Below are positions 18,043-57,952 of a DNA stretch of 64,000 nucleotides, in pieces. The DNA lies in contig CAZINP010000005.1 in the NCBI GenBank assembly GCA_964540635.1, positions 24,890-88,889 of the forward strand. The letters are read 5' to 3'. Below the pieces are notes generated by a model. The model saw only the letters and a list, made by a program, of their open reading frames with translations, was not told where the DNA came from and made no database searches. The position numbers and the translations under genes were made by a program. The DNA comes from an uncultured Gammaproteobacteria bacterium. Lineage in GTDB: Bacteria > Patescibacteriota > Patescibacteriia > Buchananbacterales > UBA6539. Position 1 is the stretch's first letter. Each line of letters starts with the position of its first letter.

Positions 18043-19176
18043 TTGCCCGATTTCAAGGGCATTCAAATTCTTGTCAACGAGCATTCCGCTCAGCTTGACG
18101 AGGAGACAGAGCTTGCCAAGGGCAAGCAAGCACAACCGGCATCTGCCGAAAAAGACAAAGCGACAGCCAAACAACGAACTTGGCTGATTGAACGCTTTGT
18201 GGTTGGCCCTGAAAACCGAGTGGCCCACGCGGTTGCCACCAGCGTTACCGAAAAAATAGAGGGGTGGCCGGAATGGCCGATTGTTTACCTCTATGGCCCG
18301 TGTGGGGTTGGCAAAACGCACTTGTTAAAAGGCATTGCCGAAATTGCTTATGCCAAGCAATGCCGGCAAAAATTGATAAGTGCCGAAGCCCTACTTAACG
18401 AATTTTCGGCCTCTATCTCCGAGAAGACCAGTGAGTCGTTTCGCAGGAAGTATCGCTCTTTAAGATTGCTCTTGATAGACGACGCAGATTTCCTACTTAA
18501 TGGGAATAAAATAAAATTCCGCGAGGAATTAGTCTTTCTCATTGAAGCGATCATTGGCAATCACGGTTGCGTGGTGTTTTGTGCCAACAACACGCCTCAA
18601 AAAACGCCAAGCACCAATGTTAAGCTTAACTCATTGCTGGTCTCAGGCCTGACAATTGAGATTAAAGCTCTTGGGAAAAAAACGCTCGAAGAAATTATTG
18701 AATATCGAGCGAAAAGAAAAAAAATCAGCCTCAAAAAAGAGGAAATAGAGGCAATTGCGGCAAGATGCTCAGACGTTCGAGAAGCGCTCGGCATCCTGAG
18801 TGGCATTAGGCTGCTCTCAAGCTCTTACGACCGTCCGGTTGATAGCGAGATCTTGGGCGAAGCCTGGGGGCACCTTAGCCCCAAGCAGGATTCACCACTA
18901 ACCATTCGTCGCATCCAAGAAGTAGTTGCCAAGTATTTCAGGATAAGACCGGAACTGCTAAACGGAAAGTCTCGAACTCACACTGTGAGCTATCCGAGAC
19001 AAATCGCCATGTACCTTTGCCGGAAATTTTTCCCGGATAAACCGATCAAGGAGATCGCCATAGCCTTTGGCAGGGATTACAGCACCGTGATCTATGCCTG
19101 CAAACAAATAGAGGAGGGCGACCTTGCCTCCCCTACAGACCTAAAAGCAATTGAAGAATTGCTCATCAAGGCCTGA
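18043..19176 (+). CDS. dnaA: DnaA-like domains II-IV (AAA+ ATPase plus C-terminal DnaA-box-binding domain)
   Basis: GPCGVGKTHL Walker A, LLIDDADFL Walker B, C-terminal RPELLNGKSRTHTVSYPRQIAMYLCRKF; ORF begins at TTG one codon after the TAA; GC about 50% against about 38% background. Confidence 0.7.
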   Translation: MPDFKGIQILVNEHSAQLDEETELAKGKQAQPASAEKDKATAKQRTWLIERFVVGPENRVAHAVATSVTEKIEGWPEWPIVYLYGPCGVGKTHLLKGIAEIAYAKQCRQKLISAEALLNEFSASISEKTSESFRRKYRSLRLLLIDDADFLLNGNKIKFREELVFLIEAIIGNHGCVVFCANNTPQKTPSTNVKLNSLLVSGLTIEIKALGKKTLEEIIEYRAKRKKISLKKEEIEAIAARCSDVREALGILSGIRLLSSSYDRPVDSEILGEAWGHLSPKQDSPLTIRRIQEVVAKYFRIRPELLNGKSRTHTVSYPRQIAMYLCRKFFPDKPIKEIAIAFGRDYSTVIYACKQIEEGDLASPTDLKAIEELLIKA

Positions 19177-37256: not shown

Positions 37257-37813
37257 TGACTAAACTTAAAAAAAATCTTGGTTTCACCCTCGCAGAGATG
37301 CTTATTTCTATTGTAATCATCTTGCTGGTTGTTTTAATGATTACGTCTATTTTCACACTGAGCCAGAGGTCTATGAGGCAGGCAAATAATAAAGCTGAAT
37401 TGATCCAAAACTCTCGCGTCGCCCTAGATTTAATGTCGCGCGAAATTAGGCAAGCCAAAAAGATTATTAGCGAACTCCCAACTTCAAATATCAACGCTTT
37501 GCATGAAATAACTTTTGAAGACGGCCACGATATTTCTGAAATTCATTATATAAATTACAGCCTGCAAGGCAACGAGGTTTACCGCCGAGTCTACATTTAC
37601 TTTTTTGATACAAATCCAGATATTTATGTCCACTATAACGATGTTGACGCCTTTGGTCCCCCCGAAAGCATGGTTATCGACGAAAAAGTAGTAGGCGAAT
37701 ATTTTGATGATTTAATTTTTTACGGCAACGGAAATATTAATATTGAAATGATCATGAAAAAAGACAATACTGAAATCTTTCTCAAATCGGTAATTAACCC
37801 AAGAAACACATGA
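37256..37813 (+). CDS. Prepilin-type pseudopilin, GspJ/PilW-like
   Basis: 185 aa; ...NLG|FTLAEMLISIVII prepilin signal. Confidence 0.65.
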   Translation: MTKLKKNLGFTLAEMLISIVIILLVVLMITSIFTLSQRSMRQANNKAELIQNSRVALDLMSREIRQAKKIISELPTSNINALHEITFEDGHDISEIHYINYSLQGNEVYRRVYIYFFDTNPDIYVHYNDVDAFGPPESMVIDEKVVGEYFDDLIFYGNGNINIEMIMKKDNTEIFLKSVINPRNT

Positions 37814-39018
37814 CCACTATTAACAATAAACAAGAAGGATTTGTCCTGATAACTTCCGTCATGATCTTAATGGCGATGCTTTTGGTTGGCTCATATTTAA
37901 TTTCCAGCTCAGACTCGGAAAATAAAATTTCCCAGGCTCAAACCGTAGCAACCAGGGATTATTACCTGGCCGAAACCGGCATTAATGAAATGCTCTGGAA
38001 AATTCAAAACAATCCCACCACAAAAAATAATTTCCTAGCCGGCACCTTAAGCGAAAGCGATAGCATAACCAGAAATAATGTTTTGGGTGACAGCCGAGCC
38101 TCATATAATGTGGCGGCTATCAATACCACCAGCTCAGAGGCCTGGATTATTGCCACGGCAACTTACCAACTAGCCGATCATGTTTCACAAAGAGTGGTAA
38201 AATCTTATATCTCAAAAGCAACAAATAATTACACTAATCCTTGGCCATTTTCTACATTTTCCGGCGGGCGAGGCGGGCAACAGAATGGAAATTTTAATTT
38301 TACCGGATCAGGAGTAGTTTTGATTTTAAACGGCGGGAGACTTCACGCCAATCAAGTTTTAAAAGTTCAAAAAGCAGAAATACAAATTAACGATGGCGTT
38401 GTTTCTTCCAGTAACGTCATTAATGAAACGGCTGGCGGTAAAATTACGCTAAATAACAGCTACAGGAGTGTGCCTACCAGCACCGTTGATATGCTTCAGA
38501 TTGATTTTGATAGCAGTGACCCAAATTCATGGAAGAGCCGCGCCACGGCAGTATATAGCACCAGCCAATTTAATTCCCTACCAAACAACACCACGCTTAA
38601 TGGCATCATCTTTGTAAATGGAAACGCCAGTGTTGTAGGGAAAAATATGACCATAAATGGCGTTTTGGTGACAAGCGGCAGTTTTTCACTCACAGAAGCG
38701 GGGCAAAATTTTACAGTTAATTTTGATCCGGCCTATGGCGGTGGTATTTTATCAAAAGGCAATTTATTTGTTACAACTTCCGGCGGTACGATTCTACTTA
38801 ACGGCCTAATATATTCCGGCAATAATCTTAACTTTACCAGCTCTGGTACAAATTTTATTATAAATGGAGCCATTGCCGGTTTTGATTCAAACATAACCGC
38901 TTCGGGAGGTGCTATCACCCTAAACTATACTCCAGCAAACATTGCCCCGGTTACCGATCCAACATATAATCCAAACGCACCATTAATAGTAATAACCCAC
39001 TGGGAAGAAGAATATTAA
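37810..39018 (+). CDS. GspK/PilX-like minor pilin with sequon-rich beta-helix-like C-terminal domain
   Basis: 402 aa; PilX_N-like QEGFVLITSVMILMAMLL; C-terminal half full of N-x-S/T repeats (NFNFTGSG, NMTINGV, NLNFTSSGTNF, NITASGG). Confidence 0.55.
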   Translation: MTTINNKQEGFVLITSVMILMAMLLVGSYLISSSDSENKISQAQTVATRDYYLAETGINEMLWKIQNNPTTKNNFLAGTLSESDSITRNNVLGDSRASYNVAAINTTSSEAWIIATATYQLADHVSQRVVKSYISKATNNYTNPWPFSTFSGGRGGQQNGNFNFTGSGVVLILNGGRLHANQVLKVQKAEIQINDGVVSSSNVINETAGGKITLNNSYRSVPTSTVDMLQIDFDSSDPNSWKSRATAVYSTSQFNSLPNNTTLNGIIFVNGNASVVGKNMTINGVLVTSGSFSLTEAGQNFTVNFDPAYGGGILSKGNLFVTTSGGTILLNGLIYSGNNLNFTSSGTNFIINGAIAGFDSNITASGGAITLNYTPANIAPVTDPTYNPNAPLIVITHWEEEY

Positions 39019-45157: not shown

Positions 45158-45212
45158 AAAATCAGGCATTTGATTAAAAACCAATACCTGGTTTTTTATT
45201 TTAATCAATTTT

Positions 45213-45246
45213 AAAGAACCTGCCGTTTGGCAGGTTCTTTAAAATT
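45213..45246. terminator. Bidirectional terminator with 12-bp stem (rpmA / pyrG), preceded by a second imperfect hairpin at about 45169..45208
   Basis: AAAGAACCTGCC-gttt-GGCAGGTTCTTT then AAAATT. Confidence 0.75.
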
Positions 45247-45260
45247 GATTTTTCAATTAT

Positions 45261-47457: not shown

Positions 47458-47733
47458 CTAATATTTAATCGTAAAATCAGAAAACTCGCCGGTCGGCTTT
47501 GACCAGCTTTGGTCAATTTTCTGTACCCTCGCAAAACTTATACCATTATAGCAGAAGTCGATAAAATCTTTCAAGTCCCCCTCATCCCCTTCGGCTAAAA
47601 CAAAAACCTTACTATTTGGGTCATTCTTAACCCAGCCGGTCAGATTTAATCTTTTTGCCTTGCTTAAAGCTGAATAGCGAAAACCAACCCCCTGGACAAC
47701 CCCCGATATACCCAGCTCAACTCTTTTTAACAT
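47458..47733 (-). CDS. acyP: Acylphosphatase
   Basis: 91 aa; VQGVGFR and GWVKN motifs. Confidence 0.85.
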
Positions 47734-49174
47734 ATAACTTATTTACAAAACCATTAACTGCATCAACCTCAATAATTTCACCATCAGAAATAATTTTTGT
47801 TGCATTTTTTGTACCAATAATACATGGGATTTTTAATTCACGGGCGACAATTGCCGCATGACAAGTTAATCCGCCTTCGTCCGTTACGATTGCTTTGGCT
47901 TTTTTCATTATTGGCAACATTTCCGGTCTGGTCATACCGGTTACCAATATGTCGCCATTTTTCATTTTAGAAAAACCGCTAACCCCAAAAATAATCCTGG
48001 CACGGCCTATAGCTTTACCACTACTGGCCACCATTCCAAATATTTTATTTTGTTTTTTATGAGTAAATATGAATTCCTTAGGTATTTTTTTAATATTATT
48101 TTTTCCTTTTAAAATCCTAGGCTTTTTGTTTTTAAAATTAAAATCAAAATAAATAAATTCTTTGCGTTTTTTGATTTCTAATGGAGTAATTTTTTTATTT
48201 TTAATAAGCTTTATAATTTCAGCCGCGGTAAAAAATTGTAAATCATTTAAAGAATAACCAAAACGTTTTCCTAACTCCTGACGAATATCATCAGAATAAT
48301 AAATTGTCTTTACGAATAATTCTTTTCTTATATCGTGCCACGGACCGACATCGTCAATTAAACGAATTATATTTACTGCCGATTTACTTAAATTATGATC
48401 TTTTATTATCTTCTCCTTCCTGGATTCAATTGCCTTAGAATAATTGTATAAGTGTTTAAATTCTTTTTTTAAATTATTTATATTAGAACCATATTGCCCA
48501 ATCCTTAGTTTAAAAAAATTTTTATTAATCACTTTTTTGCCGTCGTGGCCGGTCATTAACCATTCATATTTTTTACAATGTTTGTATAAATCAACTTTAA
48601 TATCTTTACCGGATATTTTTTTGATCGCAATTTTAATCAAATCTCTTGATTCAAGATTTAGATAACTTGGCTTAGAGATCGCGGCTAAATCAGCCAAATC
48701 ATTTTTAGACAGCTGCCAGGATTTAAAAGTTTTTTGAAAAATTTGAGGAAAAACGAAATCAAACGGTTCGGCAAAAAAACCAATAGAAAAATTTTCTTTA
48801 TAATTTTCAGTAAAAATTTCTAAATACTCAAAAAGTCGATCAACCGTCAAAGAACTAACATCGCTTGATTGATAATCTTTAATTGTCAAATCGATTTTTT
48901 CTTTCAGTGCTTGATATTGCTTTTCAATATTAAGACGAAATTTTTTGTTTTTGAATTTTTTAAAACATAAATAGCCAATTTTTTCCAATTCAGAAGCCAA
49001 TGTACACCACTTAAACGGTTCGTTGGCGCGAAAAATTACAACATTACGATTAAAACCGAAACCATAAACTTTTCGCATGCCATAGGTCATGGCAATAGCC
49101 GCCTCAGAACAAATCCAATAAATGGATTCAGCTTCATCAATATCCCATTTTTGCTTTTTAACTTCCATTGTCAT
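47717..49174 (-). CDS. PEP-utilizing-enzyme mobile (phospho-His swivel) domain protein, paralog A (rifampin-phosphotransferase-like, lacking ATP-grasp)
   Basis: Start set at MTMEV (ATG overlaps TGA of upstream ATP-grasp ORF: ATGA); C-terminus [21 protein letters not shown] = PEP-utilizers His motif; about 400-aa N-terminal region of unknown function. Confidence 0.7.
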
Positions 49175-50115
49175 AGGGTGGTTATCGGGCGCGATTGAGT
49201 TATATAAAACTTTCCTCCTGCCATTGCCCACTCAATATCTTGGGGTTTTTTATAATGTTTTTCAATAACCAAACAAATCTTGGAAAACTCAATAATCTGT
49301 TTAGTGTTGAGTTTTTGATTTTCTCTTTCTGATAATAAAACTTTTTTCCAAACGTTACCGCCGGCCACTTTTTTAACAAGCATCTTTTCCTGAGATGAAA
49401 TATTTATATCCATTATGGAAAAATTTCTTTTATCAATCACATAACTGTCAGGCGTTATCTGCCCGGAAACAATTGCTTCACCTAAACCAAAGCCGGCCTC
49501 AATTATCATTTGATTTTTATCCTTGGTAACCGGATGAACGGTAAATGATATGCCGGAAATTTCTGAATCAATCATTTTCTGCACCACCACCGCAACGGAC
49601 ACTTTTGAATTTCTTAAACCTTTTTCAAAACGATAAAATATTGCCCGTGGCGTAAACAAAGAAGACCAACAATTCTTAACTCTACCCAATAGATTTTTTT
49701 CCGTGGTATTAAGATACGTTTCCAACTCCCCCGCCCAACTTGCCTGAGAAGAATCCTCGGCCGTTGCCGAAGAGCGTACAGCCACAAATTTTGACTTCAT
49801 TTTTTTAAATTCTGAAATAATTTCCATTCCAAGATCTTTTGGTATTCTGGCATCATGAATCAAGTCACGAATAGTTTCAGAAGCTTTTTCAACAGAGTTA
49901 ATATTTTTATAATTAATTTTATTCAATTGCGATTCGATTTCTATATTCAAATCGGTTTCGGCTAAAAATTGGTCAAAAGTCTGAGCCAAAATCACAAAAC
50001 CGCCTGGAACCGGGATTTTTGCTTGGGTCATTTCACCCAAAGACGCGCCCTTGCCACCGGCCAATTTTACATCTTTTTTTGAGATTTTTCCAAATGACAA
50101 AATATTTTTTGACAT
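49171..50115 (-). CDS. Stand-alone PPDK_N-type ATP-grasp (nucleotide-binding) domain protein
   Basis: Start set at [29 protein letters not shown] (PEP synthase/PPDK N-terminus); ends ...[10 protein letters not shown] at the canonical domain boundary; no His or TIM-barrel domain. Confidence 0.7.
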
Positions 50116-50119
50116 AATA

Positions 50120-51559
50120 TTAATACCCTTGAGGCTCCCCATCTTTAATTAAATTAAAATTACTACCATCATCTCGGCGGCAATCAACGTTAATTGAATC
50201 CATTACAATAAAATCACAATGAACCTTGGCTTGATTAAAACTTGGATGATTTTTTGGTACCCCAAGCGATCCATTACTGCCAACAGCCACATGAATAGTG
50301 CCATAAATTTTTTCACCTTCACTTGAGCCAATGTCGTTATCTGCTTTATTACGACACGCCATTGTATTCGTGCCAATACCCAATTCGGCCAAACGATAAG
50401 CTTGATTTGATTCATTGTTCCCGCCGTTTAGATATCTTTTTATTGATTCAACAAGCGGGTTACCGGAATCTTGATTGATGGGTGAATTATTTATTTCCAC
50501 AACTTCGCCCTCTTTAATTTTTAAAACAACAGGACCATATTGCTTAACTTGATCTAACATATGTTCACCTCCAATTGGTCCGTTTACAACCAACACCCCA
50601 TTGCTACCGGCCCAATCGGGCGAACAGGCCCATTCGCCAATCGGATAATTTCCCATTGCGCCTGGCTGCGAAAAATCCTCGCCTGAACCGCTCTTGGTTT
50701 CATCTATCAATTCCAACCAAAGATCTGTCCCTTCCGGCGAAGTAAGATGAACGCTTCTAACGTCTTTCATTAATTTATCAATCTTTTCATTTCTTTCCAA
50801 TATAGCCTCCACCGACTCCTCCACGGCCCCCTTTGTCAGAATCTCATGCGGATTTTTACCTTTAGTGATAGATATTAATCGGCAACTATTTTTTTTGACA
50901 TAATTTTTTAGCTTTTCCCACTGTTCATCAGTTAACTCGTCCCCTAAATTTTCTAAATTACCTTTCGCCTTCGCTCCGGCCAAGGTCTGGTTTATTTTTT
51001 CGCGCTCAGGCAATCCGCCGCGAATAGCTGCCCCGGTCTCACGCGAATGAGAACGCGACATCGAGGTTAAAATCAGAATGGGTGAATTATTTTGATTTTC
51101 CATTTCCGATAATAAATAATCGCCCATATCTTCAGCCGAACGCTGAGTTTCGGGCAAAACTCTTATTCTAAAATTTCCCTTTGTTTTTTGAGACAAATCC
51201 GTTCTGAAGATTAACTCATTTTGGATAGCACTAATGAGTTCAGGCTGAGACTCAATCACCCCGATATCGGTTACAACCATCATACTTTCTTTTTTTGGAT
51301 TGAACCCAAAGGAATTAATAATGTTTCTAGCAACCACCGTCATTCTTCTTTTTATCTCCCGCTGTTCCCCAGTCATTTCTTTTGGCTCATCAACCAAAAC
51401 CTCGTGAGTAAAATCCGAACGACCATCTTGACGATTTTTCAACCCTAAAAGCTTCTGATGCAATTGTCGAGTTTGCGCGCTTGTTTCTTGATCTGGATTA
51501 TATCCAGCTTGCTGCAACTCCTCTGGGGAATTTTGATAAAAGAAATCTTTTAATCTCAT
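50120..51559 (-). CDS. Aminopeptidase, peptidase M29-like (AmpS/aminopeptidase T family)
   Basis: Start set at MRLKDFF; C-terminal LAELGIGTN...GEKIYGTIHVAVG...HCDFIV resembles the M29 LGEVAL...DENASCHLAIG metal-site region; my recollection of the family motif is approximate. Confidence 0.45.
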   Translation of the reverse strand: MRLKDFFYQNSPEELQQAGYNPDQETSAQTRQLHQKLLGLKNRQDGRSDFTHEVLVDEPKEMTGEQREIKRRMTVVARNIINSFGFNPKKESMMVVTDIGVIESQPELISAIQNELIFRTDLSQKTKGNFRIRVLPETQRSAEDMGDYLLSEMENQNNSPILILTSMSRSHSRETGAAIRGGLPEREKINQTLAGAKAKGNLENLGDELTDEQWEKLKNYVKKNSCRLISITKGKNPHEILTKGAVEESVEAILERNEKIDKLMKDVRSVHLTSPEGTDLWLELIDETKSGSGEDFSQPGAMGNYPIGEWACSPDWAGSNGVLVVNGPIGGEHMLDQVKQYGPVVLKIKEGEVVEINNSPINQDSGNPLVESIKRYLNGGNNESNQAYRLAELGIGTNTMACRNKADNDIGSSEGEKIYGTIHVAVGSNGSLGVPKNHPSFNQAKVHCDFIVMDSINVDCRRDDGSNFNLIKDGEPQGY

Positions 51560-51566
51560 AAATTTA

Positions 51567-52388
51567 TTACTTCGTATTGCATAATGCCACGGCGTGAACA
51601 ATATGCCAAAAATAATCTTTTTCATTTCTCGTTCCGTCTTCGTAGACCACACCCATATCCAAATAGTTTGCCGAAAGAAACATCCAACCACCCAAATAAA
51701 TTAACGATTTAGCCCAAGAGTTGCCGACAATGCCGGTAGAGGGAACAATTAAATTGCAACCTTCCCAAACAGCTGTTTCGTATTCCATATAATACTCTTT
51801 CGTTTCATAGCCCTTTTTTAGCAAATACTCATTAAACTGTCTGCATTGTTCCGAAATCTCATCTAACATAGGAAATTTTCCGTGTTTACTGGAAGGCCTT
51901 AAAATCCCCATTACGGCAATTTTAGGTGTAATATTAAAATCTTCTTTCATGTGTTTAATAATCCTTTCAACCTCAAATATCTTATCTTCCAGCGTTAAGC
52001 CTTGATAAACTGAACATGTGGTAACAAAAAAATTAAAATCATCCTTGTTTAGAATAGCTGAAAAAACCTTACGATTGCTCGGTATCGGCTCCATTTCAAA
52101 TTGTTTGAAAAACACATCAAGCGTTGTAGAGTCCTTAGCCTGACCGCGCACAATACCGTCTATCTTTTTTTCTCTCAGAAGACTGATTAAAATTTCACTG
52201 GCCTTATCCTGATCAGGTTCAATAATATTTTCAAACCCGTCCACCTTTTGACCAATAGCTACCAGGTCGGCATATTCAGAGGCTTTTTTTAAACTTTCTA
52301 TGGTTTCCGGAATTGGTCTCATAATTACAATTCCAATTTTTCTTTTTTGTTTTTTAGCTTGTTCTAAAAATAATTCTTTAAAATTCAT
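51567..52388 (-). CDS. Phosphate acetyl/butyryl-transferase family-like protein (PTA_PTB fold, short)
   Basis: 273 aa; KIGIV...ADLVAIG...IDGIVRG and C-terminal NLIVPSTGIVGNSWAKSL resemble Pta/Ptb segments. Confidence 0.4.
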   Translation of the reverse strand: MNFKELFLEQAKKQKRKIGIVIMRPIPETIESLKKASEYADLVAIGQKVDGFENIIEPDQDKASEILISLLREKKIDGIVRGQAKDSTTLDVFFKQFEMEPIPSNRKVFSAILNKDDFNFFVTTCSVYQGLTLEDKIFEVERIIKHMKEDFNITPKIAVMGILRPSSKHGKFPMLDEISEQCRQFNEYLLKKGYETKEYYMEYETAVWEGCNLIVPSTGIVGNSWAKSLIYLGGWMFLSANYLDMGVVYEDGTRNEKDYFWHIVHAVALCNTK

Positions 52389-52399
52389 ATTTGAATTTA

Positions 52400-53833
52400 T
52401 TATTTAATAATCTTTACTGTTCCGTTATTGGCATTTACTTCAACCAAATCACCGTCTGATAAGACTTTAGTGGCAATTTTGGTGCCAATTACGCAAGGGA
52501 TGCCAAGCTCTCGCGCCACGATTGCGGCATGGCAAGTTATCCCTCCGTCATCAGTAATAATCGCAACGGCTTTTTTCATGGCAATAAGGTGCTCCGGTCT
52601 GGTCATGGGAGAAACGAGTATGTCACCAGACTTAACCTTTTTAACATCATCAATACTTCTAACAATCTTAACTGTTCCCTTGGTCATCCCGATATTAGCC
52701 ACAAAACCCTTTAGCAATTTGATGTCCTTAGTCTTAACCCTACTTATCGCCTCAAAGAATGATTCAGCCTTTTTACCAACAAAGATTTCTTGGATTTTAC
52801 CTTTTTTATATACAAATATGCAACCTTTCATTCGCTCTTTCAAACGCAAAAGTGGAAACTTACCCGCTAAAATCTTGGGCAATTCATCTGACTTGCAATA
52901 ATCCAACAAATCTCGACTAATGCCTCTTCTTCTTGAAATTTCACTTAAAATCTTATCTAGCAAAGTAACAAATGTTAAAGTATATTCTTTGCGCAAATCC
53001 TGCCATTTTGTAAAAGTCTCTGCTAATTCCGAAAAAGAAATAATTTCAGGTGTAAATTTGTATTTTTTTATTAAAGCATTTTTTTGCGCTTTAATTTTTT
53101 TAAAATCAATTTTTTTAAAACCATCATTTAACATTTTTATTTCTTCCAAGGCCATTTTTTTGGTATAAGGAATGTAACCAACGTAACTGCTTTTTAGCCA
53201 GGCGTAATTTAAAAGATGGCGACTCAAAGCTTTATTGAATTTTTCTTTATCTTTGATTAATGAAATTTTTTTCAATTCAATCCTCTCTCTGGCAATAAAA
53301 GATAATTCGGTAGGCGCTGATAAAAGAGAATATATTTTTTGATATTCTTTAATGCCCTTTTTATTGCAAAAATTTTTTAATATATAATCTAAACGACTAT
53401 CAGCGTAAAACATAAACCCATCAAGAAATCCCGGCATTGAAATCTCATAACGATAAAAATTATAAATTCCTTGAGTCCATTCCAACAACTCATCATTTGA
53501 TAAGTCACTGAGATTAACGGAAAAAGATTTTTGAAAATTTTCCATCAATTTTGGGTATTTCTCAACCCAAGTTCCATACAGCTTCAATATTTCATTTTTA
53601 TTTTTCATGTATCGAGTAACAATAAAAGAACCAATTTCTTTGTGCTGCCTTGAAGTTGTCAGCCAGTCACCTTGTCCGTTTTTATAATAAGAGATACAAA
53701 ATGAATAAGCCAAAAAACTTGAATCATAAAGCTTGCTCGTGAAACCGGCCCCGGTCATCTCAGTTAAAGCGGGAACACCGTTGAAATGTTCAATATAAAA
53801 TTTTATTTTTTTTAATCTGTTTAAATTAACCAT
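52400..53833 (-). CDS. PEP-utilizing-enzyme mobile domain protein, paralog B
   Basis: Start set at MVNLNRLKK; C-terminus [21 protein letters not shown]. Confidence 0.65.
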   Translation of the reverse strand: MVNLNRLKKIKFYIEHFNGVPALTEMTGAGFTSKLYDSSFLAYSFCISYYKNGQGDWLTTSRQHKEIGSFIVTRYMKNKNEILKLYGTWVEKYPKLMENFQKSFSVNLSDLSNDELLEWTQGIYNFYRYEISMPGFLDGFMFYADSRLDYILKNFCNKKGIKEYQKIYSLLSAPTELSFIARERIELKKISLIKDKEKFNKALSRHLLNYAWLKSSYVGYIPYTKKMALEEIKMLNDGFKKIDFKKIKAQKNALIKKYKFTPEIISFSELAETFTKWQDLRKEYTLTFVTLLDKILSEISRRRGISRDLLDYCKSDELPKILAGKFPLLRLKERMKGCIFVYKKGKIQEIFVGKKAESFFEAISRVKTKDIKLLKGFVANIGMTKGTVKIVRSIDDVKKVKSGDILVSPMTRPEHLIAMKKAVAIITDDGGITCHAAIVARELGIPCVIGTKIATKVLSDGDLVEVNANNGTVKIIK

Positions 53834-53837
53834 ATTA

Positions 53838-55292
53838 TTAATTAAGTTTGACAACAAATCCGCGGTCACAATCGACTTTTACCCGATCGCCACTTTTGAG
53901 TAGCTGTGTCGCAACCTTTGCACCAACAATGCAAGGAATATTTAATTCACGCGAAACAATAGCTGCGTGGCAAGTCATTCCGCCTTCATCGGTAATTAAG
54001 GCCTTAGCCTTTTTAATTCCAACGATAAACTCGGGCGAAGTCATTGAAGTGACCAAAATATTGCCTTTTCTCATCTTACCCACCTCTCTGGCGGTCTTAA
54101 CAACACTAACCCGACCGATTAAATTCTTACCGCCGCTCACCACCACCCCTGTAATTTTTTCTTGTTTCTTGTTAACAGTGATATTTTGATATTTTTTAAA
54201 GATAGCTTTGGCCTTATTCCCCGAGATATAAACTGATTTATTCAAATTCTCGGAATATAAACTCATGAAAAAATTTGACCGTTTTAAAATCTCTGAGTCC
54301 GAAATTTTTTTACCACCTTTAAGCAACAAGTCTAAATCGTTTATTGTATAAAAAGGCAAATCTCTAGGACTGACGCTAAATCTTTCTGCGCTTTCATATA
54401 AAAACAAATCAATATAATGATTTGCCAAAAATATATAATATTTTCGTAGATCTTGCCACCAGACACAAAAAGCAAGGCGGTTAGAAATTTTCACAATCTC
54501 TTTGGAAATTTTGTATTTATTGATTAAAAAATTTTTTTCTTTTTTCACTTTATTCCCATAGTTCTCTAATTCAATAATTTTTGATTTAACGCTTTTGGAA
54601 GGAATGTCTTTAAGCTCGGCTAAAAAATATTTTTCATCCAAAATTTGAGTGTGATGATAGCTATTTAATATCCAAAAATATTTATCCAAATATTTTTTTA
54701 TTTTAGAAGCAAATTCTTTCTTGCCCAGGTAAGGATAAATTTTTAGCAAATCAAGGTTGGCCTTTTGGTAAAAAGAAAGTTTATCGGGCGCGGAAAGCCT
54801 TTCATACAAAAATGTAAAATTTTTTGACGTGGCAACTTCCTCTAATTTTTCTCGCAAGATTACTTCCCCGCCCCAATTTGAAATCTCCGGCAAAAACCCG
54901 ACTCGCCAAAACTCCAAATAATATTTTTCCCATTTTTTATAGACAAGATAAAAATCTCTTTGACTTAAAGACTTTAAACTCCTGGGAGTAATTTTTTTTT
55001 GGAAAGCTAGATATTGCTTAAGCTGATTTTGCCATTGACGATAATATCTCTTAAATTTTTTATCGTTTAAAACGAATCGATTAAAATTTTTTTTGCCGCT
55101 TTCAATCAGCGCCTCTTGGTCAAGAGTATAAATTGATTTCTCGCGAAAATAAAAACCGAGGCAATCCGGCCAAGAAACAAATTCTGGCGAATATAAAGCA
55201 AACGCCTCGGTAAAAAAATTAAGATATAAAATTTTTGCGTCTATTGGGCCCCACCTAAACAAGTCGTTTTTGGGGTTTATATTTATTTTCAT
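53838..55292 (-). CDS. PEP-utilizing-enzyme mobile domain protein, paralog C
   Basis: 484 aa; C-terminus GGMTCHAAIVSRELNIPCIVG. Confidence 0.7.
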   Translation of the reverse strand: MKININPKNDLFRWGPIDAKILYLNFFTEAFALYSPEFVSWPDCLGFYFREKSIYTLDQEALIESGKKNFNRFVLNDKKFKRYYRQWQNQLKQYLAFQKKITPRSLKSLSQRDFYLVYKKWEKYYLEFWRVGFLPEISNWGGEVILREKLEEVATSKNFTFLYERLSAPDKLSFYQKANLDLLKIYPYLGKKEFASKIKKYLDKYFWILNSYHHTQILDEKYFLAELKDIPSKSVKSKIIELENYGNKVKKEKNFLINKYKISKEIVKISNRLAFCVWWQDLRKYYIFLANHYIDLFLYESAERFSVSPRDLPFYTINDLDLLLKGGKKISDSEILKRSNFFMSLYSENLNKSVYISGNKAKAIFKKYQNITVNKKQEKITGVVVSGGKNLIGRVSVVKTAREVGKMRKGNILVTSMTSPEFIVGIKKAKALITDEGGMTCHAAIVSRELNIPCIVGAKVATQLLKSGDRVKVDCDRGFVVKLN

Positions 55293-55320: not shown

Positions 55321-56643
55321 TTATTTTTTCTTCAATATCTCAAGCGCCTTATCTAGTTGCGGATCCTTGCTTGCATCCACATCTTCGCTGGTTAATTTCA
55401 CTTCAACATCGGGCTTTATGCCTTCATTATTTATGTTCTTTCCGCTGGGGGTAAGCCATTCGGCAATGGTTAATTTAACCGAACTGCCGTCGGGAAAGGT
55501 GCGCAAATCTTGAACCGACCCTTTGCCAAAGGATGTTTCACCGACAATTGTTGCCACACCGTAATCTTGCAAAGCCCCGGCCACAATTTCTGAGCCGGAA
55601 GCGCTGCCGCCGTTAATCAAAACAACGGTTGGAATGCCGGCCAAACGAGCCTGCCTTTCGGAATTATGGCCAATAACCTGCCCACTTCTTAACCTCTCGG
55701 AAACAACTGTTTTACCATTAACCCAATCACCGGCAATCTCAATCGCGGTCGTTAGAAAACCGCCCGGATTATTTCTTAGGTCTAAAATGATGCCATCGGG
55801 CTTTTTCTCAATTACGCTCAAAATTGTCTTATTCCAATCACCTAAAGTATTCTCATTAAAATAAAGAAGTTCGACATAAGCAATATTGCCATCCAGCATT
55901 AACCCGTCTTTATCTGGACCTTCATTGTTTACATTTTTAAGCGACTCAACCTTTGTTTCCCCGGAAAACTTAACACTATCAATTTCAATTTTTGATCTGA
56001 CAATTTCAATATCTTTTGTTTTTTCATCATTTGCCGGCAAGATCGTCAATTTAACTTTTGTACCCTTCGTCCCACGAATTATACTGACGGCGTAATCCAA
56101 GGCCATATTGGAAGAATCCTGGCCGTCAATGGCAAGTATTTTATCCCCCGCCCTTAGTCCGGCTTTTTCGGCCGGTGTATTTGGCAAAGGTGAAATTATG
56201 GTAATAACATTATCTTTCATACCAATTTCAGCACCAATCCCTTCAAAACTGCCGGACAAATCATCATCAAATTTCTTGGAAATTTCCGGATTAAAAAATA
56301 CAGAATATGGATCGCCCAAAGAACTAACCATTCCTTCCAGCGCACCATAAAACAATTTAGTGTCAGAAACGTCTGATTTGACATAATTCTCTTTGACATA
56401 TTTCCAAACCTGCCAAAACTCCTGAAAATCAACATCTTCCGATAAATAATCCGGATTTTTTGTTTGCTGATTTAAAACCGCTCCGCCGGTTTGGTTTTTT
56501 TGCAACTGATGTTGAGATTGCAAATTACCAAGTACCAAACCAAAAATAAAAACCAAAACAATCAAGGCGGAAAGCAAATATCCGCTGATAATTTTTTTAG
56601 ACGGTTGCGTTTTAATTTCTTTTATTTTATGGAAAATTTTCAT
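55321..56643 (-). CDS. ctpA: Carboxyl-terminal processing protease (S41 family, with PDZ domain)
   Basis: 440 aa; N-terminal TM, PDZ (GLRAGDKILAIDG), S41 catalytic region GIILDLRNNPGG...SASGSE. Confidence 0.85.
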   Translation of the reverse strand: MKIFHKIKEIKTQPSKKIISGYLLSALIVLVFIFGLVLGNLQSQHQLQKNQTGGAVLNQQTKNPDYLSEDVDFQEFWQVWKYVKENYVKSDVSDTKLFYGALEGMVSSLGDPYSVFFNPEISKKFDDDLSGSFEGIGAEIGMKDNVITIISPLPNTPAEKAGLRAGDKILAIDGQDSSNMALDYAVSIIRGTKGTKVKLTILPANDEKTKDIEIVRSKIEIDSVKFSGETKVESLKNVNNEGPDKDGLMLDGNIAYVELLYFNENTLGDWNKTILSVIEKKPDGIILDLRNNPGGFLTTAIEIAGDWVNGKTVVSERLRSGQVIGHNSERQARLAGIPTVVLINGGSASGSEIVAGALQDYGVATIVGETSFGKGSVQDLRTFPDGSSVKLTIAEWLTPSGKNINNEGIKPDVEVKLTSEDVDASKDPQLDKALEILKKK

Positions 56644-56647
56644 AAAA

Positions 56648-57952
56648 TTAATCTATTTTTTCAATCCCCGCGCCAACCTTAGAAAGACGACGACAAAGAT
56701 CTTCGTAACCTCGTTCAATTGAATAAACACTATGCAAAGTTGATTTTCCCTTTGCCGCCAACATTCCCACTAAAATTGTGGTTGAAGGTCGAAGCGCCGG
56801 CGGGCAAATTACATCGGCTGCCTTGAGTTTTGTCGGACCGGAAATATAAACACGATGAGGATCAGCCAGATCAATCTTAGCACCCAATCGATTTAACTCC
56901 GTATAATAAATAGCACGATTTTCGTAAACCCAATCAAAAATCATAGTTCGCCCTTTTGCCTGAGTGGCAATGGGAACAAAAAACGGCAAATTATCAATAT
57001 TTAAACCCGGGTATGGTCTGGCATAAATCTTTTCCTCCAAGGCAACCAATTTACTGGGAAAAGTTTTAATATCAACCAGCTTAGTCTTACCATTTCTGGC
57101 CAAATAGCGTTTCAAAATTTTATAGCGCCAACCCATCTTTTCCAATTTAAGCAACTCCAGATCCAAAAAATCAATTGGGCAGCGCTTAATCTCCAAAGAT
57201 GAATTGGTGGTAGCGGCGATACTGATAAAAAGCATCGACTCAATGGGATCCTCGGAAATGTAATAGACAATATCTTTCTTTAAAGATTTCTTTCCGTGTA
57301 TCTCCAAGGTGGTAGAGCCAATGCCGTCTATTTTAACGCCCAGTTCTTGCAGAAAAAAACACAACTCCTGGACTTGATAATTAGCCGAAGCCATCTTTAT
57401 AATGGTTCTGCCGGAGGCTTGAGCAGCCGCCATTAGAGCATTTTCGGTCGTGGTATCACCCGACTCATACATTACAAATTCTTTGCCGGCGCGAAATCCG
57501 GAAGCGTCAACTTGATAATATTTTGATAATGTTTTAATTTTGATGCCAAAATTCTCTAAGGCAAAAAGGTGTGGCGCCACCGTTCTTTTTCCCAAGCGAC
57601 ATCCACCGGGTTGCGGCACCAAAAATTTCTTCTGCCAAGAAATCATTGTGGCCAAAAGAAATAAAACACTTCTTGTTCTTATGGCTGATTCATAATTTAA
57701 TTTTTGTAAATTTATTTTTTTGGGTGGCTTAATTAGGATATCGACTTTATTAACCCATTTGACATCTACCCCCAAACTCTGTAAAACTTCAATAATACGA
57801 TAAACCTCTTCAATTCTGGCTACATTTTTTAACAAAGTTTTTCCTCTATTTAACAAAGCGGCATTTAATAAAACAACAGCCGCGTTCTTTGAAGTATTGG
57901 TTGTAAGGGTACCGGCAAGTTTCTTTTGGCCGGTAATCACGTATTTACTCAT
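56648..57952 (-). CDS. murA: UDP-N-acetylglucosamine 1-carboxyvinyltransferase MurA
   Basis: 434 aa; EPSP-synthase fold, conserved active-site loop region (KNAAV..LL, CRLGKR). Confidence 0.9.
   Translation of the reverse strand: MSKYVITGQKKLAGTLTTNTSKNAAVVLLNAALLNRGKTLLKNVARIEEVYRIIEVLQSLGVDVKWVNKVDILIKPPKKINLQKLNYESAIRTRSVLFLLATMISWQKKFLVPQPGGCRLGKRTVAPHLFALENFGIKIKTLSKYYQVDASGFRAGKEFVMYESGDTTTENALMAAAQASGRTIIKMASANYQVQELCFFLQELGVKIDGIGSTTLEIHGKKSLKKDIVYYISEDPIESMLFISIAATTNSSLEIKRCPIDFLDLELLKLEKMGWRYKILKRYLARNGKTKLVDIKTFPSKLVALEEKIYARPYPGLNIDNLPFFVPIATQAKGRTMIFDWVYENRAIYYTELNRLGAKIDLADPHRVYISGPTKLKAADVICPPALRPSTTILVGMLAAKGKSTLHSVYSIERGYEDLCRRLSKVGAGIEKID

Follow-up and report, generated by a model that had tools for sequence, protein, structure and literature searches.

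A probable hub-and-spoke small-molecule dikinase locus with one ATP-grasp protein and three diverged His-subunits

The DNA analysed here is a stretch of 64 kb, referred to as the window, and the cluster of interest occupies its minus strand between positions 47458 and 55292. The cluster probably encodes a hub-and-spoke two-component small-molecule dikinase of the rifampin phosphotransferase (RPH)/phenylphosphate-synthase type, in which one stand-alone ATP-grasp protein would charge three His-subunits, termed A, B and C. The evidence comprises the domain content, fold and catalytic-residue conservation of the encoded proteins, their split into separate polypeptides, the recurrence of the many-to-one arrangement in relatives, and natural fusions. 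Split trans-acting dikinases are themselves an established kind (PpsAB, PasAB, AcvAB, CreHI and HpeHI). The hub-and-spoke layout, one conserved ATP-grasp protein accompanied by 1–8 deeply diverged His-subunits, looks new, and no earlier description of such an array was found in the literature.

Gene layout and the separate ATP-grasp protein

The host of the cluster is an ultra-small CPR bacterium. An ORF check of the window located A, B, C and the ATP-grasp ORF at the coordinates given in the first-pass annotation. Read along the minus strand, the seven genes of the cluster are His-subunit C (53838..55292, 484 aa), His-subunit B (52400..53833, 477 aa), which starts 4 nt past the stop of C, an MtxX/Mmp4-like protein (51567..52388, 273 aa), an M29/NicX-like metalloenzyme homologue (50120..51556, ~478 aa), the ATP-grasp subunit proposed as the shared phosphodonor (49171..50115, 314 aa), His-subunit A (47717..49174, 485 aa) and an acylphosphatase (47458..47733, 91 aa). 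Two unrelated genes lie between the ATP-grasp gene and B/C, and the three paralogs, previously described as tandem, are not strictly so, with three genes separating A from B and C. The entire window holds three swivel ORFs and one ATP-grasp ORF, and a Pfam search of its ORFs of at least 250 aa returned no match to the PEP-utilizers_C TIM barrel.

As annotated, the ATP-grasp ORF consists of PPDK_N only, PF01326 being its sole Pfam domain (E 2e-96); a longer reading is possible, with the ATG at 50142 also open. The protein aligns end to end with residues 4–316 of RPH-Lm (E 2e-62) and keeps K22, R117 and T136, whose counterparts position ATP in RPH (PMC4844700). It closes with ...QSRPITTL, which corresponds to RPH-Lm residues 310–316, the end of the ATP-grasp domain, so the claim that the ORF stops at a domain boundary is borne out. 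The ATGA stop/start overlap with A can be read in the sequence.

Joined end to end, the ATP-grasp ORF and A would make a protein of about 800 aa that matches RPH in length and in the order of its domains, and a few relatives are fused in the same manner (P0022, 792 aa; L081, 677 aa; L092). The two could accordingly be read as one frameshifted RPH-like or PEP-synthase gene, with B and C as pseudogene fragments, a reading that we regard as almost certainly wrong. In a set of 80 closely related ATP-grasp proteins from metagenomes, 74 are encoded by a separate gene, two are fused and four are cut by contig ends, and the best 120 database matches are all 312–358 aa long with PF01326 only. Stand-alone homologues in CPR genomes share 59–81% identity with the protein. 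A Berkelbacteria genome (L005) has the two genes in the opposite order, the His-subunit coming first, and an independent Logan assembly has the identical ATP-grasp/A junction. Moreover, every ORF is intact, the catalytic residues are conserved, and full-length orthologues of B and C occur elsewhere. The split of ATP-grasp and His-subunits is genuine, and it recurs in other genomes.

Fold and conserved residues of the His-subunits

PF00391 (PEP-utilizers) is the only Pfam domain of each His-subunit and is located at the extreme C-terminus (residues 424–494 of the 504-aa ORF form of A, E 5e-27; residues 413–483 of B, E 2e-24; residues 408–478 of C, E 2e-27). The about 480-aa paralogs thus do carry the C-terminal motif first ascribed to them, GG(L/I/M)TCHAAIV(A/S)REL.IPC, and lack an ATP-grasp domain, as was also noted. 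The motif places the catalytic histidine at position 439 of A (47858-47860, minus strand), 435 of B (52529-52531, minus) and 442 of C (53967-53969, minus); the swivel domain of A spans about 47720-48037 (minus). The reported N-terminal divergence holds, with about 22–23% identity among A, B and C in this region versus 46–56% in the swivel domains, and C is homologous to A along its entire length.

The AF2 model of A (pLDDT 94.9, pTM 0.92) has RPH-Lm as its top structural match and the sole near-full-length one, at 15–18% sequence identity. A profile built from 107 members of the family aligns with RPH residues 455–866 (E 1e-34). The match comprises the rifampin-binding domain and the swivel of RPH, which excludes that the N-terminal regions hide an ATP-grasp domain or a TIM barrel. 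A conserved D-x-R-K motif occurs as WHDIRK in A (48323-48340, minus) and as WQDLRK in B (52988-53005, minus) and C (54441-54458, minus). In the profile alignment, family residues D281 and K284 coincide with RPH E667 and K670. The lysine and the catalytic histidine are present in all 107 members, R283 in 106 and D281 in 103. In RPH the second phosphotransfer is abolished by E667A and by R666A (PMC4844700). The counterpart of R666 is Q/H280, not an arginine, and the conserved R283 sits at another position; the phosphotransfer site is therefore similar but not identical to that of RPH. The swivel carries a PEP-synthase-type GGxTCH motif: 92/107 members have Thr at position –2, where RPH, HpeH, CreH and PpsA have Met, and so the family is no simple orthologue of the known two-component kinases.

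Retention of this regulatory Thr would also suit a protein phosphorelay, PTS-like or PPDK-derived, whose swivel proteins would serve as phospho-carriers or regulators and act on proteins. His_Phos_1 proteins recur in the arrays, and their superfamily includes the phospho-His phosphatase SixA. In Mycobacterium tuberculosis, a PPDK-derived kinase is reported to regulate the methylcitrate cycle (PMC13400623). However, the counterpart of the large helical domain in RPH is the domain that binds a small molecule (rifampin), the D and K residues of the RPH phosphotransfer pocket are kept, and no HPr-like or other carrier gene was found among the cluster genes or the window ORFs of at least 250 aa. 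We therefore consider a phosphorelay very improbable.

Arrays and neighbouring genes in relatives

Array sizes were tallied in 23 well-flanked metagenomic loci. These contain 0 (4 loci), 1 (4), 2 (4), 3 (3), 4 (3), 5 (3), 6 (1) or 7 (1) His-units, such that 15 of the 23 have 2–7 units around a single ATP-grasp; arrays of relatives reach from 2 to 8 His-subunits with one ATP-grasp. Two ATP-grasp ORFs occur in just one of 95 loci. Two natural polyproteins, both free of stops, combine the ATP-grasp domain with three units (1836 aa) or enclose it between three units and one further unit (2309 aa). Because 15/23 loci hold 2–7 units and the polyproteins hold three or four, we infer that a single ATP-grasp serves several His modules. 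In 4/23 well-flanked loci no His-subunit lies within 10 kb of the ATP-grasp gene; the genes thus need not be linked, and partners may come from other loci. The units are highly diverse: 134 units from 51 loci form 93 clusters or subfamilies at an identity of at least 38%, every member of an array of at least three units belongs to a different cluster, and identity among units of one locus is 24% at the median and at most 32%. The ATP-grasp proteins of these loci, in contrast, keep 59–81% identity. The labelled loci belong to CPR bacteria and DPANN archaea.

Orthologues of A, 47–57% identical, are found in L001, L003 and L005. An orthologue of B occurs in L011 (50%) but in neither of the two closest relatives (L001 and L003). 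C has orthologues in L008 (52%, at the same position after an S41 peptidase) and in a DPANN contig (L010, 40%). A possible alternative, though an unlikely one, is that A alone pairs 1:1 with the ATP-grasp protein, as in HpeHI, and that B and C are independent enzymes with another donor or none; they might be charged by a donor encoded elsewhere or shuttle phosphate from one small molecule to another. Consistent with such pairing, the ATGA overlap couples the translation of the ATP-grasp ORF to that of A alone, an A-type subunit adjoins the ATP-grasp gene in L001, L003 and L005, B and C are followed by two unrelated genes, a swivel gene is absent within 300 nt of the ATP-grasp gene in 22/37 loci, and HpeH alone moves phosphate from 4-phosphoacetophenone to acetovanillone. 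Against it, no second ATP-grasp was found in the 64-kb window and no PEP-binding TIM barrel in its ORFs of at least 250 aa, single-ATP-grasp arrays of up to 7–8 units are the rule, the polyproteins contain three or four units for one ATP-grasp, and the three paralogs resemble each other much more closely in their swivels than in their binding domains, which fits a shared docking partner.

The genes between and beside the dikinase subunits are lineage-specific neighbours, not core parts. The 51567..52388 ORF, which has no Pfam match, had been called a PTA_PTB-like acyltransferase. The protein, encoded inside the operon, has a PTA/PlsX/PdxA-type fold and is MtxX/Mmp4-like by its matches to TIGR03270 (E 4e-18, its 65 bits falling short of the cut-off of 190) and PDB 9nzy (MTH_231, E 1e-6). 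Its orthologues are 89% identical in L001, 77% in L003 and 72% in L008, and the gene occurs in nine array loci, but in only three of the 23 well-flanked loci. The M29-like aminopeptidase assignment applies to the C-terminal half only (PF02073, Peptidase_M29, 35 bits, residues 301–519), and orthologues of this protein match PF26233 NicX. The ORF is open to 51691, and its start is most likely the ATG at 51556; orthologues are found in L001 (76%) and L003 (68%), and the gene in six array loci. The overlap first described between the acylphosphatase gene (PF00708, E 1e-23) and the 3′ end of A measures 17 nt. The gene is present in L003, L018, L019, L021 and L034, and L001 has a VKOR gene in its place. 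Only some relatives conserve it beside their orthologue of A, and its product may be an accessory phosphatase. With the three neighbours present in only 2–3 of the 23 well-flanked loci, the phosphoryl-transfer theme once proposed for the whole cluster is weak.

Phosphatase genes (HAD_2, His_Phos_1, acylphosphatase) do recur across the arrays. They bear on a further, quite improbable explanation, namely that the His-subunits are PigC/RedH-like ligases of a biosynthetic cluster, in which phosphorylation of a carbonyl or hydroxyl merely activates the substrate for condensation or substitution. The NCBIfam PigC and RedH models match the ATP-grasp protein (E 4e-71 and 2.5e-71) and residues 148–480 of C (E 1e-17), and PigC-type enzymes share the ATP-grasp/binding-domain/swivel design of RPH (PMC13534948). 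However, the scores of 63–240 bits are far under the cut-offs of 1300–1350, no pyrrole, polyketide or other biosynthetic genes were found among the cluster genes and the window ORFs of at least 250 aa, and recurring phosphatases fit free phospho-products better.

Proposed mechanism and related systems

In the hub-and-spoke dikinase, the 314-aa ATP-grasp protein would bind MgATP, and the swivel domain of A, B or C would dock on it transiently. The invariant histidine of the subunit would then attack the β-phosphate of ATP with release of AMP, and the γ-phosphate would be hydrolysed to Pi. The phospho-His swivel would return to its own helical RPH-like substrate-binding domain and, beside the invariant D-x-R-K, pass the phosphate to a hydroxyl or similar nucleophile of the bound small molecule. 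Transfer in trans, the docking of B and C, their sharing of the ATP-grasp protein and the small-molecule nature of the acceptors are inferred. Because the binding domains share about 22% identity, a different substrate is expected for each His-subunit, with the ATP-grasp partner in common. Most likely, the system lets a CPR bacterium with a reduced genome capture or modify, by phosphorylation, several compounds that stem from its host or environment.

The ATP-grasp protein matches the 387-aa chain of PDB 9goj, which we take to be HpeI, with E 3e-50. In the phenylphosphate synthase of Thauera aromatica, PpsAB(C), Protein 2 passes a phosphoryl group from ATP to His569 of Protein 1; in HpeHI from Rhodococcus rhodochrous, HpeI is the ATP-grasp protein and HpeH comprises an RPH-like binding domain and swivel, the complex is transient, the H581Q variant is dead, and HpeH by itself is able to pass phosphate from one small molecule to another (PMC12167813; PMC7500099; bioRxiv 10.1101/2022.04.28.489975). 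Given this solo shuttling, the His-subunits could also catalyse reactions independent of the ATP-grasp protein. PpsAB, CreHI, AcvAB, PasAB and HpeHI all keep the ATP-grasp subunit apart from a subunit with a binding domain and C-terminal swivel, and the ping-pong course through His-pyrophosphate and His-phosphate to AMP and Pi, like the transient complex of both subunits, is proposed here as well. However, the known systems are 1:1 pairs, whereas three diverged His-subunits per ATP-grasp occur here and up to eight elsewhere. The His-subunits are also shorter (about 480 aa versus roughly 600–640 aa; HpeH is 71 kDa), and the PRK08296-group NCBIfam models (about 570–630 aa, C-terminal swivel) match their swivel region only. 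Unlike the known systems, which belong to aromatic-degrading Proteobacteria and Actinobacteria, the present family is found in CPR bacteria and DPANN archaea, and carboxylase or aromatic-catabolism genes are not nearby.

RPH-Lm (PDB 5FBS/5FBT/5FBU/5HV1) has the same module order of ATP-grasp, helical substrate-binding domain and C-terminal swivel His in a single polypeptide, whereas the modules are here split over separate proteins. With the RPH model NF041857, whose cut-off is 999 bits, A reaches 87 and the ATP-grasp protein 278 bits, the RPH swivel motif is GGLMTHGAVIARE, unlike that of the His-subunits, and there is no indication in this locus of rifamycin as a substrate. Nearest in sequence to both the ATP-grasp and swivel domains are those of PEP synthases (ATP-grasp: NF005057, E 1e-101, and PDB 8a8e, E 1e-69; swivel: 8a8e, E 3e-28), and PEP synthase has the identical GGxTCHAAIV motif. 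Nonetheless, the PEP-synthase model scores of 341 and 136 bits are under the family cut-off of 598, the PEP synthase/PPDK TIM barrel is missing from the cluster as from the window ORFs of at least 250 aa, and the swivel, central in PEP synthase and PPDK, is here C-terminal after the helical domain.

One-to-many designs are known from FakA, which works with several FakB fatty-acid-binding proteins, and from PTS Enzyme I/HPr, which serve many sugar-specific Enzymes II. By analogy, the proposed system would share their logic of one energy-coupling component for several substrate-specific components. Apart from the swivel domain of Enzyme I, their folds are unrelated to those here, and the PTS uses PEP as donor where ATP is proposed here. 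In contrast to both designs, the phospho-His carrier and the substrate-binding domain are located on the same polypeptide.

Gene layout and domain composition of the cluster

Between 45.2 and 58.0 kb every gene lies on the minus strand in tight packing. In transcription order, MurA (56648-57952) is followed by an S41/PDZ C-terminal processing peptidase (55321-56643), the His-subunit paralogs C (53838-55292) and B (52400-53833, starting 4 nt past the stop of C), an MtxX/Mmp4-like ORF (51567-52388), an M29/NicX-like ORF (50120 to about 51556), the ATP-grasp ORF (49171-50115), paralog A (47717-49174), an acylphosphatase (47458-47733), and then the genes for ribosomal protein L9 and CTP synthase. 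The sequence reads an ATGA overlap between the ATP-grasp ORF and A, and a 17-nt overlap between A and the acylphosphatase. The sole Pfam match of A, B and C is PF00391 (phospho-His swivel), located at the very C-terminus, and that of the ATP-grasp ORF is PF01326 (PPDK_N). The three paralogs can be aligned over their full length, with 22-23% identity in the first ~375 residues versus 46-56% in the swivel. No further ATP-grasp or swivel ORF was found in the 64-kb window. The first-pass annotation had described three swivel paralogs accompanied by one stand-alone ATP-grasp ORF; the domain content, the overlaps and the ORF survey of the window bear this out, and the feature is thus real and was correctly read.

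The remainder of the window is an ordinary CPR chromosome, with a dcw (cell division/cell wall) cluster, SecA, DnaA, type IV pilus and ribosomal genes. None of the six cluster proteins matched the anti-phage defence models of PADLOC-DB, and Rfam searches at the gathering threshold yielded nothing across the 64 kb, with no tRNA, rRNA or riboswitch detected. The promoter and terminator scan gave nothing informative within the cluster; its one strong hairpin, a perfect 20-bp stem followed by a T-run, is located outside the cluster at 45203-45250, between the convergent L27 and CTP synthase genes, and is likely a bidirectional terminator. The G+C content rises to 0.45 at 18-20 kb, beside the DnaA gene (18043-19176). 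Two large plus-strand ORFs have no Pfam match at E up to 1e-5, one of 762 aa (9261-11549) and one of 402 aa (37810-39018), the latter flanked by the type IV pilus genes PilC and PilM.

Separate ATP-grasp and His-subunit genes, and their relation to known dikinases

An alternative is that the ATP-grasp ORF and A are one gene split by a frameshift error. The relatives rule this out. The N-domain of A, that is its binding region, has stand-alone homologues of ~480 aa in Buchananbacteria and Berkelbacteria MAGs, and at these loci the ATP-grasp is a separate gene adjoining the A orthologue. In the Berkelbacteria contig (L005) the His-subunit gene precedes the ATP-grasp gene, a reversed order that no frameshift could produce. 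Among 80 metagenome loci with 59-79% identity to the ATP-grasp ORF, 74 carry it as a stand-alone gene, 4 are cut by the contig end and 2 are fused to a swivel. The best 120 protein matches of the ATP-grasp are all 312-358 aa long, with PF01326 as their sole domain. Those that carry names belong to Buchanan-, Kerfeld-, Veblen-, Falkow-, Parcubacteria and 'Patescibacteria group' MAGs. The junction between the ATP-grasp ORF and A is identical in an independent Logan assembly. The split is therefore genuine, and the earlier reading of two polypeptides rather than one frameshifted gene holds.

Over its whole length the ATP-grasp ORF can be aligned with residues 4-316 of Listeria rifampin phosphotransferase (RPH) at an E value of 2e-62, and it ends in QSRPITTL at the same boundary as the RPH ATP-grasp domain. 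The RPH residues K22, R117 and T136, whose roles in ATP positioning have been described (PMC4844700), are conserved. The family profile of the His-subunits aligns with RPH residues 455-866 (E 1e-34), and the family motif W-Q-D-x-R-K falls on RPH Y665-R666-E667-Y668-P669-K670. Across 107 members the Lys and the catalytic His are invariant (107/107 each), and the Arg and Asp are retained in 106/107 and 103/107, respectively. The alignment pairs D281 with E667 and K284 with K670, both conserved, Q/H280 with R666, and R283 with P669. In RPH, E667 positions the phospho-His and shares a hydrogen-bond network with K670, and either E667A or R666A abolishes the second phosphotransfer (PMC4844700). It is thus plausible that each paralog keeps a second active site, albeit with the Arg at a different position. 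The AF2 model of A was taken from the run with the 107-sequence alignment; a 3-sequence alignment gave a pLDDT of 62.7.

Split dikinases of ATP-grasp plus His-subunit design have been known since phenylphosphate synthase, so the principle of a trans-acting ATP-grasp with a His-subunit is not new. As in PpsAB, CreHI and HpeHI, the ATP-grasp (PPDK_N) is a separate protein, of the about 35-40 kDa class in those systems and 314 aa here, and the second subunit combines an RPH-like binding domain with a C-terminal swivel carrying the catalytic His. Unlike in those systems, the His-subunits are shorter, catabolic partner genes are absent and the taxonomic home is another. PpsA, CreH and HpeH form a clade of about 40-45% mutual identity with Met at position -2 from the catalytic His. 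The present proteins have the GGxTCH motif of the PEP-synthase type, retaining the regulatory Thr where RPH, HpeH, CreH and PpsA have Met (Thr in 92/107 members). The NCBIfam models of the PRK08296 group (about 570-630 aa, C-terminal swivel) match only residues about 370-480, which correspond to the swivel, and no match of the N-domain to models of this type was detected. The system would work like the split dikinases, yet by the NCBIfam models and the swivel motif it lies outside the PpsA/CreH/HpeH clade.

Other assignments were weighed against the same data. Identity with RPH is ruled out by the two-gene arrangement, where RPH is a single polypeptide, and by NF041857 scores of 87 bits for A and 278 bits for the ATP-grasp ORF, far below the cut-off of 999. 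PEP synthases are the closest in sequence to both the ATP-grasp and the swivel, including the GGxTCH motif; the binding domain, unlike these two, is RPH-like. In PEP synthase and PPDK the swivel is central and precedes a C-terminal TIM barrel (PF02896), whereas here the swivel is C-terminal and PF02896 matches neither the three paralogs nor any other ORF of at least 250 aa in the window. This eliminates a split PEP synthase. Membership of the PigC/RedH ligases is likewise rejected, since the best scores of 240 bits (ATP-grasp) and 63-71 bits (His-subunits) are below cut-offs of 1300-1350 bits and the window contains no pigment or prodiginine genes.

His-subunit arrays in related loci

Word-indexed homologue searches with the N-domain returned 10 proteins for a single sequence and 14 for a 20-sequence profile; the family was revealed by an exhaustive profile search of representative clusters (50% identity), which gave 3,027 clusters at E ≤ 1e-3, of which 1,684 also pass E ≤ 1e-10. 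Of 159 N-domain proteins among the matches listed and the earlier homologue matches, 121 are stand-alone proteins of N-domain plus swivel, 21 are fragments, 10 are tandem multi-unit fusions without ATP-grasp and 7 contain an ATP-grasp, a unit being one binding domain with its swivel. Two polyproteins are open without stops in table 11: one of 1836 aa with an ATP-grasp followed by three units (L012:10001-15511, on a contig with archaeal-type genes), and one of 2309 aa with three units, an ATP-grasp and one further unit (L014:2012-8941).

Scanning of contigs with the N-domain alignment gave at least 6 loci. Related loci combine one ATP-grasp with 2-8 His-subunit genes, and two ATP-grasp ORFs occur in only 1 of 95 loci. 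ORFs of the relatives that match the swivel model only have the swivel at the C-terminus and no further Pfam domain. In the 23 well-flanked metagenomic loci (at least 5 kb on each side), zero, one and two units were each counted in 4 loci, three, four and five units each in 3 loci, and six and seven units in 1 locus each. The many-to-one arrangement is thus the rule in the family of His-subunits and ATP-grasp.

Clustering of 134 units from 51 loci at ≥38% identity resulted in 93 clusters. In arrays with at least three units every unit belongs to a different cluster, and identity within a locus does not exceed 32%, which excludes recent tandem duplication as the origin of the arrays. Repertoires also vary among close relatives. 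A has orthologues in L001, L003 and L005, and orthologues of B and C were found in none of these three; a B orthologue (50%) occurs in L011, and C orthologues occur in L008 (52%) and in a Micrarchaeia (DPANN) contig (40%). Identities to L001 are 79% for the ATP-grasp, 89% for the MtxX-like and 76% for the M29-like protein, a level of conservation similar to that of CTP synthase (83%). Loci L021 and L019 have the same MurA/S41...L9/CTP synthase synteny as the window; in L021 the ATP-grasp and acylphosphatase are left without His-subunits, and in L019 one unit is left. These two close relatives have thus lost all or most of their His-subunits, and turnover of the repertoire at one fixed site is rapid. 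A Y1_Tnp (IS200-like) transposase fragment is located within the array of the Buchananbacteria relative L003 (2366-2893).

No description of many-to-one arrays in CPR or DPANN was found in the literature; one CPR resistome survey counts rph-like hits, and one DPANN study notes orphan 'phenylphosphate synthase' genes without carboxylase. The hub-and-spoke expansion, the natural polyproteins and the apparent concentration in CPR and DPANN appear to be new. The CPR/DPANN distribution is provisional because taxon labels are available for only about two dozen sequences.

Accessory genes, proposed mechanism and possible role

The M29-like and MtxX-like genes are positioned between the His-subunit genes and the ATP-grasp in the window, L001, L003 and L018; L019 has the MtxX-like gene alone in that position, and L082 has the pair in a different order. 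Among the 23 well-flanked loci the MtxX-like gene occurs in 3, the M29-like gene in 2 and the acylphosphatase in 3. These low counts exclude the three as core parts, and we treat them as lineage-specific passengers or accessories. The MtxX-like protein is 89, 77 and 72% identical to its L001, L003 and L008 orthologues, and its gene is embedded in the dikinase arrays of 9 loci. MtxX is an uncharacterised methanogen marker with a PTA/PlsX-like fold, and its presence in CPR dikinase arrays is a possible lead to its function. Just upstream of the MtxX-like gene in the arrays of three relatives (L001:4922-5689, L003:6096-6869 and L008:18799-19572) lies a conserved family of 255-257 aa, 62-70% identical, with a motif, 'VLDGANRT', that by eye resembles ParB/sulfiredoxin; the family has no Pfam match, and the window lacks it.

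When the remaining in-array ORFs were clustered without bias, phosphatase-type genes recurred: 7 loci have a member of one HAD_2 family, and two His_Phos_1 families are represented at 5 and 3 loci, respectively (for example L029:2444-3052, L068:2064-2852 and L033:9234-9863). Further small families share an N-terminal 'RH' motif, and an APH-type kinase occurs once (L011:9072-10049). In the acetovanillone pathway, too, the gene cluster of the split kinase includes a HAD-superfamily phosphatase homologue. Given this precedent and the recurrence in arrays, kinase-plus-phosphatase pairing is the better-supported theme, and in the window the acylphosphatase may play the phosphatase part.

By homology with RPH and the split phenolic kinases, the ATP-grasp would present MgATP and the swivel His would attack the β-phosphate, upon which AMP would leave and the γ-phosphate would be hydrolyzed; the phospho-His domain would then swing onto its own binding domain and phosphorylate the bound acceptor. 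We consider this reading as a whole probable. The domains, the fold, the conserved residues, the gene arrangement and the fusions are observed directly; we infer that charging takes place in trans, that the three subunits have the ATP-grasp in common and that the acceptors are small molecules.

With their tiny genomes, CPR bacteria and DPANN archaea rely on hosts for most building blocks, and the routes of acquisition and processing are largely obscure. About 5.3 kb of the locus goes to a split dikinase with three predicted specificities, and relatives spend up to about 12 kb on as many as eight, so large an investment for so reduced a genome that the system is probably important. A wider reading, which we put forward tentatively, is a widespread system of ultra-small symbionts (CPR, DPANN) in which one slowly evolving ATP-grasp charges many substrate-specific phospho-His subunits in a PTS-like trapping role. 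The repertoire is large: 51 loci contain 93 subfamilies, and clustering at 50% identity gives at least 1,684 groups. In this reading the arrays would be an ATP-driven soluble counterpart of the PTS, trapping or modifying many different host-derived metabolites or neutralizing host antibiotics by phosphorylation, and HAD, His_Phos_1 and acylphosphatase proteins would release the products. In a bolder variant some subunits would make acyl-phosphates, which the MtxX-like protein of PTA/PlsX fold would pass on; this would connect it with the salvage of lipids or acids in organisms unable to make their own.

Two-component dikinases are recently recognized and so far come from aromatic catabolism. 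If one ATP-grasp charges many subunits, they extend to a modular many-to-one design. In that case the system would also offer a concrete, testable way into how episymbionts scavenge or detoxify metabolites. New small-molecule kinases for biocatalysis could be drawn from the diverse binding domains. Two cases carry labels from other phyla: six tandem His-subunit genes on a 12-kb contig binned as an Ignavibacterium sp. MAG (L009), and one Margulisiibacteriota-labelled sequence among the best 120 ATP-grasp matches. These are either true occurrences outside CPR and DPANN or binning errors.
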